This document shows, piece by piece, positions 60,306-64,000 of a DNA stretch of 64,000 bases. The position numbers and the translations under genes are program-made. The notes beneath the pieces are model-generated. The model saw nothing but the letters and a program-made list of their open reading frames with translations. It searched no databases and was not told the origin of the DNA. The DNA comes from Candidatus Bipolaricaulota bacterium (GTDB taxonomy: Bacteria > Bipolaricaulota > Bipolaricaulia > UBA7950 > UBA9294), in assembly GCA_040752575.1 (NCBI GenBank), contig JBFMGK010000015.1, forward strand, positions 15,823 through 79,822, read 5' to 3'. The number at the start of each line of letters is the position of its first letter. Positions within the stretch are counted from its first letter, which is position 1.

Positions 60306-62368
60306 GGCCGGCCTCCTCGCTTGCCGTCGAAGCCCCCGCCGTCGGGCTTCGACCCCAGCTGCCCGCCATCGCGCCCCGGCGGGCAGCCGAGAGCCTGCGT
60401 CGGGCACACCGCGGCGCAGAGGCCGCAGCCATTACACAGGGCCGCGTCGATCACGATCGCGCCAGCCGCGTTACCTGTCGGCGACCTGAACGACAAAGCT
60501 GGACAGCCGGTGATCTGGATGCAGCGCTTGCAGAGGACGCACTTCGCGGCGTCGATTTGGATCGGCGCGCCTGCCGCCCCGCGGCGCCGCGATTGGATCG
60601 CGCACTCCTGCCGGGCAAGAAGCACGCGCACGCCCGTCGCCTCTTTCAGGAAGTCGGTCAAGATCGCCGTCGTCGCCGCGAGGTCGAAGGGGTCCGAGAT
60701 GGCGAAGCGGTCGACGCCGAGCGCGGGGATCACAGTCGCGAGGTCGATCCGCCGCCCGCCACGCTGCTCGCCTTCGTCGGTGCCCGGATTCACCTGCATG
60801 CCGGTCATCGCCGTCCAGCCGTTGTCCATCACGACGACAACGAGCGGCGTCCGGTGCTGCACGGCGTTCAGGAGTCCCGGGATGCCGCCGTGGAAGAACG
60901 TCGAGTCGCCGATCGTCGCGACGACAGGCGTCGTGAGGCCGGCGTGGACGTAGCCCTGCGCGAGGCTGACGCTCGAGCCCATCGAGACCTCGTTCCACAA
61001 GAGGTCGAACGGCGGGTTCATCCCGAGGATCGTGCAGCCGATGTCGCCGGTGACCATGACCTCATCCTGCTTGAAGCCCGCCTTCTTGATCGCCGCCTCG
61101 ATCGCCATGTACGTCCCGCGATGCGGGCATCCGGCGCAAACAGTGATAGGCCGCGGCGCGGCCATGTGTGCGCAGGAGAGAACCGTCTCGAATTCAGCGG
61201 CTCCGGACGGTTCTTCTGTAAGGTGGTCCTCGCAACGACCACCGGCGCCGGCTGCAACAGTGATCGGGCGAGGCGCTGGTTCAGCCTGTAGCTTGTAGCT
61301 CGTAGCTTGTGGGGCCTCTCCGACAGCCCCCACAGGCCGCGAGCTGCATGCCACAAGCCCGGCAACGATCTCCGCCATCCCGTATTCGCCGGATCGGCTC
61401 AGCGTTCCGTCGAGCTTGCCGACGATCGGGCCGGCAAAGCCGACGCGGCGCGCGGCCAACAGAACGTCGCGCTCAAGATGGGGTTCGAGTTCCTCAAGGA
61501 CGAGGACGGCGCCAACGTGGCCGAGGAGCGTCTCGACCTCGGCAACGGGGAACGGAACGGTCGACGCAGCGCGGAGGATCGAGACGTCACCTGCGTTCAG
61601 GCCGGCCGCGGCCAGACCCTCGCCGAGCGCACTGACCGGGGCGCCGACGGCGATGACCCCGAGCCCGCCGGGTTTTCCGAGCGTCAGCCGATGGGCGCCG
61701 CGCTCGTGAAGCCACCTCCCGGCCGCCTCGAGCCGTTCGAGCAGCGCCTCGTGCTGGCCAAGGCAGATCGCCGACCCGGCCTTCGTGTACCGCGCGTTGT
61801 CGCGCTCCAGGAGCGGCGGAGAAGGCGGTTCAAGCGGACCCTCGTCGTCGACCTGGACGATCGCGTGCGTCAGCGCAACGGCTGTCGTCAAGCGCAAAAA
61901 AACGAGCCCGCCGATCGCCTCGGAAAGGTCGAACGCGAGCTGCGCGAAGCGATAGGCCTCCTCGACCGAAGACGGCTCGAGCATCGGCGCGTCGGTCATG
62001 AGCGCGAACCCGCGGGTGTCCTGCTCCGGCATCCCGGCCGAAACGCCCGGGTCGTCGGCGACGTAGACCACGAGCCCGCCGTTCGTCCCCGAGTACGCGA
62101 TCGAGACGACCGCGTCGTACGCGACGTTCAGGCCCGACATCTTCATCGTGCAGAGCGCCCGCCGCCCGGCCCACGCCGCGCCCGCCGCGATCTCGAACGC
62201 CACCTTCTCGTTCGTCGACCACTCCACATGCCGACCCGGAAGATCACGCAAGAGAAGACTCGCCAGCGCCTCCGTCGACGGCGTCCCCGGATAGCCCGTC
62301 ACAACCCGGACTCCGGCGCGCAACGCACCCAAGGCAAGAGCTTCGTTTCCCGTGACGATCTTCTTCAT
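60302..62368 (-). CDS. iorA: Indolepyruvate:ferredoxin oxidoreductase subunit alpha (with an unusual ~37-aa in-frame insertion before the CxGCPH motif)
   Basis: The N-terminus MKKIVTGNEALALGALRAGV..GYPGTPSTE is canonical, and the TPP-binding CAGCPHRG and GDIGC / GDSTFFH motifs and two C-terminal 4Fe-4S CxxCxxCxxxCP motifs are present. The APRPITV peptide is duplicated around an inserted segment at nt 61150-61290. Confidence 0.85.
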   Translation of the reverse strand: MKKIVTGNEALALGALRAGVRVVTGYPGTPSTEALASLLLRDLPGRHVEWSTNEKVAFEIAAGAAWAGRRALCTMKMSGLNVAYDAVVSIAYSGTNGGLVVYVADDPGVSAGMPEQDTRGFALMTDAPMLEPSSVEEAYRFAQLAFDLSEAIGGLVFLRLTTAVALTHAIVQVDDEGPLEPPSPPLLERDNARYTKAGSAICLGQHEALLERLEAAGRWLHERGAHRLTLGKPGGLGVIAVGAPVSALGEGLAAAGLNAGDVSILRAASTVPFPVAEVETLLGHVGAVLVLEELEPHLERDVLLAARRVGFAGPIVGKLDGTLSRSGEYGMAEIVAGLVACSSRPVGAVGEAPQATSYKLQAEPAPRPITVAAGAGGRCEDHLTEEPSGAAEFETVLSCAHMAAPRPITVCAGCPHRGTYMAIEAAIKKAGFKQDEVMVTGDIGCTILGMNPPFDLLWNEVSMGSSVSLAQGYVHAGLTTPVVATIGDSTFFHGGIPGLLNAVQHRTPLVVVVMDNGWTAMTGMQVNPGTDEGEQRGGRRIDLATVIPALGVDRFAISDPFDLAATTAILTDFLKEATGVRVLLARQECAIQSRRRGAAGAPIQIDAAKCVLCKRCIQITGCPALSFRSPTGNAAGAIVIDAALCNGCGLCAAVCPTQALGCPPGRDGGQLGSKPDGGGFDGKRGGRP

Positions 62369-62620
62369 AGAGCGCAGAGATTATCCGCGGTCTTCCGAGC
62401 CGCGTCACCTACGAAGCACTGCCCGCGCCCTTGTGTGACTAGGATGCGGCGATCGAGCCGGCCTCGTGTAGCGTCGGGAGCAAGCCCTTGGCGTCGAGGC
62501 CAAGGGACTCTCCGACGTTCGGAATGAGCCTGGCTGCCGGGTGACGGCCCCATAGCCCAACGTCGCACACAGGGTGCGACGCTACAGGGGCCAGCGTCCT
62601 CGCCTCCGACCATGGACTAC

Positions 62621-63268
62621 GGACCCCGGACTGCGCACCGCGGACTGCGCACCGTCAACCCAACGAACTCCACGAACCCAATGAACTCAACAACCCGCTC
62701 GCCCGCGCCTGCGGACTATGGACTGCGCCGCCGCATCTCGCTTTCCAGCTCGGAAGAAGAAACCGACCCGCAGAGCAGGTCGGCTCGAGCCAATATAGTA
62801 ACCGCAATCATTAGACACCGTGGGCGGCACTCTGTCAAGTGTGATGGCGTCGGCCGGGATTCCCGCTCGCGAACCGCACCCCCCGGACCCCGGACCATGG
62901 ACCACGGACTGCGCACCGTCTCTTTGCAGGCGGCTAAGGCCGGAACGGATCAGCTCAGCAACCAACGTCGGAGACAAGCGCCGACGCTACGTGGGACAAG
63001 GAACTCTCGTCGATCCCCCGGACCCCGGACCGCGCACTGTGGACTGTGGACTGCGGACCGCGCACTACGCCGTTCGCAACCCAACGAACCCTACGAACCC
63101 AATGAACTCAACAAACCGCTCGCCCGCGCCCTCCGGACCCCGGACCATGGACCACGGACTGCGCACTGCGCACTGCGCACCGCGGACTGCGGACCCCGCC
63201 CCTCGCAACTCAACGAACCCAACGAACTCCACGAACCCAATGAACTCAACAAACCGCTCGCCCGCGCC
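62621..63268. repeat. Composite iteron-like direct repeats (three A+B units) in a 0.9-kb intergenic region
   Basis: Direct read. A 54-63-bp CA-rich B unit (caacccaacgaac[t/c]c[c/t]acgaacccaatgaactcaacaa[a/c]ccgctcgcccgcgcc) occurs at 62656-62709, 63077-63130 and 63206-63268. Each is preceded by a GGACTGCGCAC / GGACCATGGACC-rich A unit. Inside B there is a 9-bp sub-periodicity (aacgaactc / cacgaaccc / aatgaactc). An extra A copy lies at 62879-62918. Confidence 0.7.
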
Positions 63269-63283
63269 CCGCGGACTCCCCCC

Positions 63284-63312
63284 TTGACGCGATGTCTATC
63301 AAATGATACATT
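63284..63312 (+). promoter_or_regulatory. Near-consensus sigma70-type promoter (TTGACG, 17 nt spacer, TACATT) for the toxin-antitoxin operon
   Basis: Direct read: TTGACG 63284-63289, a 17-nt spacer, TACATT 63307-63312, immediately after the last B repeat. Confidence 0.45.
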
Positions 63313-63368
63313 CGGGCGTGCAAGAGCCTGGCGAAGACATCGAGCGAGCCTGGGTTGTCGCGTTCTTG

Positions 63369-63689
63369 ATGCGATTCAAGGCGTTGGCATCTGCGGATCG
63401 GATGGTCGTATTCCAAAGGAAGAACTACATCGAAACCCTAGGCGCGCTCGGCACACTGCCACACCAAGCGGAGGAGGTCATTCTGGGCCTCACGTTCGAG
63501 GACTACTACAGGGGTGCAGGAGCAGGCGAAAGAGATAGAGAGGAAGTCTGCGAGTTCGGAGCACGCGTGGCAGGGGAGGAAGTCTACATCAAGCCGATCA
63601 TCGATAGGGCGCACTCAAAGGCCATCTGCTGCTCGTTTCACATCGCCGAGAGGGAAATCGGCTACCCGTTTGCGCAAGACGGGTCGTAA
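63369..63689 (+). CDS. mqsR: MqsR-family toxin (mRNA interferase) of a type II toxin-antitoxin pair
   Basis: Recalled similarity to E. coli MqsR: EDYYRG (compare SDFYKS), EEVYIKPII (compare GQVYLKITVI) and KAICCSFHIAER (compare VLIVSFKEK). Local GC is ~57%. The ORF track starts it at 63303, but that ATG lies inside the promoter spacer, so I prefer the ATG at 63369 (107 aa, similar to the 98-aa MqsR). Confidence 0.55.
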   Translation: MRFKALASADRMVVFQRKNYIETLGALGTLPHQAEEVILGLTFEDYYRGAGAGERDREEVCEFGARVAGEEVYIKPIIDRAHSKAICCSFHIAEREIGYPFAQDGS

Positions 63690-63699
63690 GGAGGAAGCC

Positions 63700-64000
63700 G
63701 TGCCAGAGGTGTTCTGCCCCCAATGCAAGGCTCAGCGCGAGCCGAAGGTCCATCGCCGGGATGAGACGATCACGGTCAAGGGCGAACCCGTAGAGATTCA
63801 GGCGAACGTGGCCGTGTGCGCCGAGTGCGGCGAAGACCTCTTTGTCGCTGAGCTGGAGGAACACAACGTCAAGCGAGCTTTCGACATCTATCGACGTCGC
63901 CACGACCTGCTCACCGCAAGCCAGATCAGGGAGCTTCGAGAGCGCTACGGGCTCTCGCAAAGAGGTCTGGCGCAGCTCCTGGGTTGGGGGGAGGTCACCG
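63700..64000 (+). CDS. mqsA: MqsA-family antitoxin (YgiT-type zinc finger plus Xre-type HTH), 3' partial at the window edge
   Basis: RBS TAAGGAGGAAGCC-GTG lies 10 nt after the toxin stop. CPQC...ITVKGEPVEIQANVAVCAECGE is the YgiT/MqsA zinc ribbon, and the sequence then runs into LTASQIRELRERYGLSQRGLAQLLG (HTH). Toxin-then-antitoxin gene order matches the mqsRA arrangement. Confidence 0.7.
   Translation, partial: MPEVFCPQCKAQREPKVHRRDETITVKGEPVEIQANVAVCAECGEDLFVAELEEHNVKRAFDIYRRRHDLLTASQIRELRERYGLSQRGLAQLLGWGEVT

Follow-up and report, generated by a model that had tools for sequence, protein, structure and literature searches.

A repeat-filled spacer beside a toxin-antitoxin cassette in a Bipolaricaulota genome is probably a mosaic cluster of a REP family

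Regularly phased short direct repeats are familiar as the iterons of theta-replicating plasmids and as the heptad arrays bound by omega/ParR-type ribbon-helix-helix proteins, the omega sites of pSM19035 being contiguous units of 7 bp. Repetitive extragenic palindromic (REP) sequences are dispersed repeats, and in the REPIN-RAYT system they have a cognate gene for a REP-associated tyrosine transposase (RAYT), a Y1 HUH transposase, which is often itself flanked by REPs. GTAG-tagged REPs carry a terminal GTAG and short loops on stems of 6-13 bp that contain G-T pairs, pair up head to head at distances of 20-100 bp, and also occur in large clusters whose units are reiterated together with flanking DNA; some copies are intragenic, and an occasional regular association with other repeats has been described (Di Nocera et al., 2013, PMC3733652). 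Here we analyse an intergenic spacer (positions 62369-63283) within a 64,000-nucleotide stretch of a Candidatus Bipolaricaulota genome (contig JBFMGK010000015.1), a stretch that we call the window. The spacer is bounded by the divergent start of iorA (ATG at 62368, minus strand), as a preliminary description of this DNA had placed it, and by a plus-strand toxin-antitoxin operon. That description read the repeats in the spacer as iterons marking a plasmid or phage origin, as a partition array or as the remnant of an attachment region. Our own reading, to which we give a probability of about three in four, is that the spacer is a cluster resembling bacterial interspersed mosaic elements (BIMEs), made of a Bipolaricaulota REP family that was locally amplified beside an accessory MqsA/Panacea toxin-antitoxin cassette.

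From left to right, the spacer consists of H1, H2-A1-B1, a unique segment of 140 nt, A′, H3-A2-B2, A3-B3 and the toxin-antitoxin promoter, where H denotes a hairpin, A an array of 7-nt units and B an array of 9-nt units. The A and B repeats are real and beyond chance, and they lie where they had been reported. The B units share a 37-nt core (CGAACCCAATGAACTCAACAAACCGCTCGCCCGCGCC), found with at most one mismatch at 62673, 63094 and 63232 and nowhere else within the 64 kb; none of 100 shuffles matched it, and Tandem Repeats Finder (TRF) placed period-7/14 and period-9/18 arrays in this spacer alone. Each B array is made of four to five nonamers, NAYGAACYC, followed by a GC-rich tail, CCGCTCGCCCGCGCC. 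The units measure 53-62 nt and contain 24-27 C, 7-8 G and 4-5 T, so that the earlier ‘almost no G or T’ slightly overstates the case. The A arrays are strictly phased 7-nt units of the form NNGSACY, with nine contiguous heptads in A3 (63133-63195) and seven each in A1 and A2. Units of the GGACTGCGCAC type number ten between 62628 and 63194 and one in the rest of the window, and GGACCATGGACC is found twice in the spacer. Three B units were counted, as in the preliminary description, but the A arrays number four rather than three, the additional one (62871-62917) having no B unit.

All of the arrays read on the plus strand. A1 (62603-62655; repeat detection, TRF and register layout) comprises seven phased heptads beginning ATGGACT, ACGGACC, CCGGACT, GCGCACC, and is followed directly by B1 (62656-62709; TRF and B-core search), with nonamers AACGAACTC, CACGAACCC, AATGAACTC and AACAACCCG and the tail CTCGCCCGCGCC. 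Next comes a segment without assigned strand (62710-62870; sequence inspection and BLAST) in which a short A fragment, TGCGGACTATGGACTGCGCC, precedes about 140 nt of unique spacer, and BLAST of 62721-62870 against all related loci compared returned no match. A′ (62871-62917; TRF and register layout) contains solitary heptads (CCGGACC, CCGGACC, ATGGACC, ACGGACT, GCGCACC) with no B array after them and looks like a truncated unit. In the second full unit, A2 (63012-63077; TRF and unit search) holds seven phased heptads and then the spacer CTACGCCGTTCGC, and B2 (63078-63130; TRF and B-core search) holds nonamers and tail. A3 (63131-63206; TRF and unit search) has nine phased heptads and the spacer CCGCCCCTCGC, and B3 (63207-63268; TRF and B-core search) has five nonamers and a tail that ends 15 nt before the -35 box of the promoter. 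A3 and B3 together are unstructured on both strands (fold z -1.3 and -0.4). A DnaA box (TGTGGAC in A2) and a likeness of the repeats to the heptamer and nonamer of V(D)J recombination were both dismissed on inspection as partial or coincidental.

The preliminary description overlooked three GTAG-tagged hairpins in the spacer, all of which share the ends GTAGCGTCG...CGACGTT. H1 (62467-62522, plus strand) runs TGTAGCGTCGGGAG...CTCCGACGTT with a nested inner hairpin, and its predicted DNA fold has an energy of -16.1 kcal/mol (z -2.7). H2 (62556-62586, minus strand) reads GTAGCGTCGCAC-CCTGT-GTGCGACGTT on that strand (-10.6 kcal/mol, z -4.4), and H3 (62962-62990, minus strand), directly left of A2, reads GTAGCGTCGGCGC-TTGT-CTCCGACGTT with a weak fold (-6.8 kcal/mol, z -1.5). 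H1 is the left partner of a head-to-head pair with H2, the two lying 33 nt apart with their GTAG tags outward, and jointly they could form one long hairpin in the computed fold (-34 kcal/mol, z -3.4). H2 and H3 are each followed closely on the right by an A array. Stems are 7-10 bp and include a G-T pair, and loops are short. A search for inverted repeat pairs in the spacer found none at default settings and, with a 6-nt seed, hairpin-scale and palindromic pairs alone. The hairpins are thus imperfect palindromes with a terminal GTAG, arranged as an inverted dimer and in a cluster, and H1-H3 fit the published definition of a GTAG-tagged REP (PMC3733652).

The resemblance to GTAG REPs and BIMEs (PMC3733652; Nunvar et al., 2010, PMC2817692) extends from the terminal GTAG, the 7-10-bp imperfect stem with its G-T pair and the short loop to the head-to-head dimers, the clusters that include flanking DNA, the dispersal seen in related contigs, mostly extragenic with some intragenic copies, and the nested insertions. 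Unlike classical BIMEs, which have unique linker motifs, the units described here join hairpins to ordered 7-nt and 9-nt micro-arrays. REPINs (Bertels and Rainey, 2011, PMC3116915) are likewise inverted REPs able to form a long hairpin, as H1 and H2 are, and a dispersed multi-copy family, but most units here are a single hairpin with arrays rather than a symmetric doublet, and no RAYT was found in the roughly 2 Mb searched. The family's characteristic sequences were absent from the published REP literature searched and from the 24 GTAG families of PMC3733652, whose hosts do not include the phylum Bipolaricaulota. The family therefore appears to be undescribed, though of a known kind.

The same hairpins and arrays are dispersed in related genomes. 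In what follows, L-numbers label compared loci or contigs and P-numbers label compared proteins. Hairpins of the H1-H3 type are present at other sites in L001, L003, L004 and L005, two of the three sites in L004 being identical to H2 at 28 of 28 nt, and in four Bipolaricaulota metagenome-assembled genomes (MAGs; L019, L036, L116 and L120); one spacer in L131 contains at least six, as against three in the whole window. A composite pattern that demands both array modules (GGACYSCGSAC-N5-30-AACGAACYCNAYGAAC) was searched in metagenome contigs and matched 20 loci, a count that includes contig L002 and, for several entries, one locus recovered from different samples, so that distinct loci are fewer. 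In every composite match the modules come in one order, namely hairpin, heptads, short spacer and nonamers. The spacer between heptads and nonamers is T-rich in the relatives (for example GCTCTTCCCC) and C-rich in the window. One 194-kb contig carries three composite loci, a LacI-type gene in L139 is preceded by a tandem run of five units, each about 130 nt long, and Bipolaricaulis sp. L042 has four units around a small operon. About five mosaic zones, with copies 85-97% identical, lie within the 11.4-kb contig L129. The gene context is mixed, with units in divergent, convergent and tandem spacers and in either orientation. In L131, L142 and L001 even the coding sequence of a xanthine-dehydrogenase-type protein contains a unit, which lies in its MoCoBD_2 domain, in frame and antisense.

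At those intragenic sites (L131 2850-3050, L142 and L001 4100-4230), the unit splits the Pfam match and, by eye, encodes a low-complexity loop resembling GSLGSLGSSGSLG. More REP hairpins and heptad arrays follow the toxin-antitoxin cassette in L004 (8141-10042), L003 (3364-3390) and L001 (2950-3360), and accessory genes of the relatives, namely the cassette and sometimes a RhuM-family gene, are thus bracketed by the repeat family.

Two broader searches were less informative about dispersal. The exact B-tail pattern AATGAACTCAACAAMCCGCTCGCC, which was over-specific, had no match in genome or metagenome contigs. A nonamer-only pattern had over 119 matches in genomes from many phyla, but in viral contigs the reversed nonamer, used as a control, gave 90 matches against 25 for the true motif, and many of the genome matches are coding D-E-L or D-E-P repeats. 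We therefore dropped the idea that the nonamer is conserved across phyla and made no use of the raw count, keeping from this search the multi-locus non-coding arrays in the same MAGs alongside the composite pattern.

These observations can be accommodated if the unit is non-autonomous selfish DNA that spreads probably through its hairpin and a RAYT. Local tandem duplication and slippage would then have produced the full units H2-A1-B1 and H3-A2-B2, the truncated A′ and the hairpin-less A3-B3. Any effects on neighbouring genes would be incidental, among them the spacing or insulation of divergent promoters, the formation of DNA or RNA hairpins and, if the plus strand is read, a C-rich unstructured transcript. 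A dedicated function is probably absent. On this reading the arrays would not serve a replicon-specific initiator, a partition protein or the antitoxin as binding sites.

The cassette itself was probably inserted into a spacer that was already rich in REPs. The ior-upstream spacers of L131 and L263, which lack the cassette, are REP-rich as well, and insertion into such a spacer is therefore the simplest history. In L263 this spacer contains two or three REP hairpins, and in L131 it contains a dense cluster in which at least six GTAGCGTC...GACGTT hairpins, some of them nested, accompany heptads in reverse orientation. Directly upstream of ior in both (IorA of L263 is 76% identical) is a xanthine-dehydrogenase-type gene in the same orientation. 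In L001, the cassette is followed by more mosaic repeats and then by a convergent xanthine-dehydrogenase-type gene.

Several observations weigh against this interpretation of the spacer as a REP cluster. Within the window the repeat family is restricted to this one spacer, and the evidence for dispersal comes from relatives, the source genome having been surveyed over the 64 kb of the window. Neither a RAYT nor another transposase turned up in about 2 Mb of compared sequence by motif scan and by tblastn with an approximate IS200 TnpA query. The terminal inverted repeats and target-site duplications that would mark a miniature inverted-repeat transposable element were not observed around any unit, the loci compared including no clean pair of filled and empty sites. 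The modules keep their order although the sequences have diverged (G+C 56-68%), and selection for some function could account for this. Finally, a B unit lies at an equal distance before the -35 box in the window and in L001, the two closest toxin-antitoxin loci, an arrangement that is equally compatible with a shared insertion and with a local role.

If the spacer is indeed a REP cluster, it removes a false lead from the annotation, since the region would hold no origin, partition or attachment site, and the 308-aa and 155-aa open reading frames (ORFs) that cross it would be artefacts of strand-biased repeats. It would also mean that a REP-type family occurs in Bipolaricaulota, an uncultured phylum, and that its architecture, a hairpin with 7-nt and 9-nt micro-arrays, is both fixed and unusual. 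Its units occupy the spacers between genes and can also be accommodated in frame within enzymes. Such repeats are likely to fragment metagenome assemblies and to create spurious proteins, and they may mark hot spots for the insertion of accessory cassettes.

A more specific proposal, which we hold only tentatively, is that hairpin, heptads, spacer and nonamers together form an undescribed, hierarchically repetitive mobile module of Bipolaricaulota that moves as a unit. The two array types have a common AYGRAC core (ACGGAC, ATGGAC, ACGAAC, ATGAAC), and the arrays might be cleavage/joining or binding sites of a transposase that recognizes the hairpin. Were this so, it would explain the linkage of hairpin and arrays, their expansion in place, their in-frame landing within genes and their marking of the spacers into which cassettes are inserted. 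Arrays that serve as transposase substrates would be a new variation on REP/RAYT biology; otherwise they are ordinary repeat DNA.

The arrays might instead act as RNA, the plus strand yielding an unstructured C/A- and GGA-rich transcript that serves as a CsrA-like sponge or as a Rho-loading (rut-like) attenuator, with the GTAG hairpins as stabilisers or terminators. Such a role would suit the A arrays, which offer a GGA every 7 nt, the B units, which are unstructured and hold 24-27 C against 7-8 G, the G-T pairs of the stems, which RNA would tolerate, and the order and orientation of modules within the unit, which are kept across loci. We nevertheless consider it unlikely. No Rfam family was significant, matches being at noise level, and a scan found no promoter- or terminator-like site bracketing any unit. 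Many heptads read GCGCAC and lack GGA, and where GGA occurs it is not in hairpin loops, as it would be in RNAs of the CsrB/RsmZ type. The orientation of units relative to flanking genes is mixed, with some copies antisense inside genes, and at this locus there is no upstream plus-strand gene that could be attenuated. The G-rich strand was also considered for a G-quadruplex, which was dismissed because each B unit of the window has only two or three GGG tracts.

Next in line is a local regulatory role, in which the arrays would supply activator or repressor sites to the toxin-antitoxin or ior promoter or form a contingency locus tuned by copy number; the evidence makes this decidedly improbable. 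The toxin-antitoxin promoter, TTGACG-17-TACATT (63284-63312, plus strand), was predicted by a consensus scan and by a five-locus alignment, and the reported distances hold: B3 ends at 63268, TTGACG begins at 63284 and TACATT ends at 63312. A palindrome, TATCAAATGATA (63297-63308, plus strand), spans the promoter spacer and the -10 box and is unchanged in all five aligned loci, and the sequence from TTGAC through GGGCGTGC is largely invariant, varying at the sixth -35 base, in part of the spacer and at one -10 base. On these grounds the predicted promoter is real. In favour of a role for the arrays, a gap of 15 nt separates a B unit from the -35 box both in the window and in L001, where the toxin is 91% identical and one H+A+B unit occupies the same position; moreover, short tandem repeats are prone to slippage, and the B units number three in the window and one in L001. 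However, three orthologous loci that are free of repeats (L003, L004 and L008) retain both promoter and palindrome, while their sequence upstream of the -35 box is unrelated to the window. BLAST homology begins at 63283 with L003 and at 63272 with L004. Since promoter and palindrome are kept in the repeat-free relatives, the arrays would be neither the operator of this promoter nor needed for its regulation. The same units also lie upstream, downstream and inside unrelated genes, and samples of the same locus (L129 versus L132 and L146; L138 versus L145) are 99.3-99.9% identical with 0-1 gap openings, arrays included. An UP element was rejected, the -40 to -60 region being GC-rich.

In Escherichia coli, the MqsRA operator is a palindrome in the mqsRA promoter. 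The present locus is alike in having an MqsA-family antitoxin downstream of a promoter with a conserved palindrome, a combination that at the level of sequence identifies TATCAAATGATA as the likely operator of an MqsA-type antitoxin. It differs from the E. coli system in the sequence of the palindrome, in the Panacea domain of its antitoxin orthologues and in a toxin that matches no MqsR model, and the A/B repeats are no part of the operator. Promoter and likely operator thus appear self-contained, with the arrays outside the conserved cassette.

The iteron interpretation of the preliminary description, broadened to centromere-like arrays at which a DNA-binding protein encoded by a plasmid, phage or integrative element (Rep, ParR/omega-type or another) would bind cooperatively, fares worse and is now very improbable. 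The nine contiguous heptads of A3 do resemble pSM19035 omega sites in form, the arrays are contiguous phased short direct repeats near a promoter, as iterons and omega/ParR arrays are, and they adjoin an accessory toxin-antitoxin cassette of lower G+C. Yet many unrelated chromosomal sites carry the units, with several on single contigs, and the copies face both ways and include intragenic ones. An AT-rich unwinding region is lacking, G+C staying at 0.635-0.69 in every 200-nt window from 62400 to 63299, and the heptads, rather than overlapping the -35 box, lie 85-150 bp upstream of it. On either side of the spacer lie iorA and a toxin-antitoxin pair, the ORFs scanned from 62368 to 63999 gave an MqsA/helix-turn-helix (HTH) Pfam match alone, and the called genes of the related contigs include no rep or par Pfam family. 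A comparison of the repeats with plasmid and phage databases, which had been proposed as a check, was run and gave no match, and the composite pattern had none in viral contigs. The dispersed REP-like element that the preliminary description had itself named as the finding that would overturn its reading is essentially what the relatives contain, at the 20 metagenome loci counted above.

That the repeats belong to a degenerate or unusual protein-coding gene, a plus-strand ORF of 308 or 155 aa, is scarcely credible: the frames do stay open over 0.5-0.9 kb and family copies are tolerated in frame inside real genes elsewhere, but there is no Pfam match, the frame of B1 differs from that of B2 and B3, 1-nt gaps appear when the sequence is aligned with L001, a peptide repeat cannot be maintained by heptad arrays, and the 308-aa ORF (62612-63538), correctly set aside earlier as an artefact of a non-coding region, crosses the promoter and overlaps the toxin gene in another frame.

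The cassette downstream of the promoter had been described as mqsRA-like, which is borne out for the antitoxin and unproven for the toxin. The antitoxin N-terminus is an MqsA-type zinc ribbon/HTH (63700-64000, plus strand, ending at the window edge; Pfam MqsA_antitoxin, 1.1e-07). Its orthologue in L001 matches TIGR03830 (7.9e-31), and the orthologues are 348-359 aa long with a C-terminal SocA_Panacea domain. The toxin-like ORF (63303-63689, plus strand, 128 aa; ORF list and profile searches) has no match in Pfam, NCBIfam or the PDB, including to any MqsR model, and six relatives (P0001-P0006) among 5.8 billion proteins. Together with an antitoxin that joins an MqsA N-terminus to a Panacea domain, it may represent an uncharacterised toxin family of a PanA-type system. 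Its start is uncertain, because the ATG at 63303 lies within its own promoter. The real start may be the GTG at 63318, which would give a leaderless mRNA.

The toxin-antitoxin genes have a G+C of 0.57-0.63, down from about 0.70, in agreement with the preliminary description. The same cassette is found in three neighbourhoods: the window has it beside ior, L001 and L002 have it behind an ABC-transporter gene, and L004-L007 have it behind an HD-CE/HATPase gene. Relatives have the xanthine-dehydrogenase-type gene upstream of ior instead; by this comparison the toxin-antitoxin genes are accessory.

On the ior side, a consensus scan located a putative promoter, GTGACG-17-GATAAT (62380-62408, minus strand), about 11 nt upstream of the iorA ATG, and L263 likewise has GTGACG...GATAAT upstream of iorA. 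The IorA protein of the window is 100% identical to a database entry assigned to a Candidatus Bipolaricaulota MAG, a label shared by many of the next-best matches. Both divergent promoters (62366-62408 and 63284-63320) would yield leaderless or near-leaderless mRNAs, the ior -10 box ending 11 nt before the ATG.

Non-coding nonamer arrays, often beside hairpins, recur at multiple sites in several Bipolaricaulota, WOR-3 and Vicinamibacterales MAGs. The Vicinamibacterales MAGs (L041 6400-6700, L104 2560-2700, L126 and L044) carry a different GTAG REP, GTAGTGCGCGACTTCAGTCGCGCC, at several loci per MAG, with GGTTCGT arrays on one side of it and ACGAACC arrays on the other, which gives long composite palindromes. 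The likeness of these arrays to the Bipolaricaulota nonamers may be coincidental.

Repeats of another sort lie within iorA itself. At 61131-61364 of the window (minus strand), an in-frame variable tandem repeat just precedes the conserved CAGCPHRG motif. It involves two copies, 117 nt apart, of a 29-nt segment that encodes APRPITV(C/A)AG; a pair of small hairpins lies between them, and upstream of the duplication a 7-nt array (AAGCTAC, GAGCTAC, AAGCTAC) lies within a long imperfect hairpin. Bipolaricaulota IorA homologues, which range from 600 to 783 aa, have between zero and three copies of a APRPITVCAGAG...LTGEPS...TVL unit.

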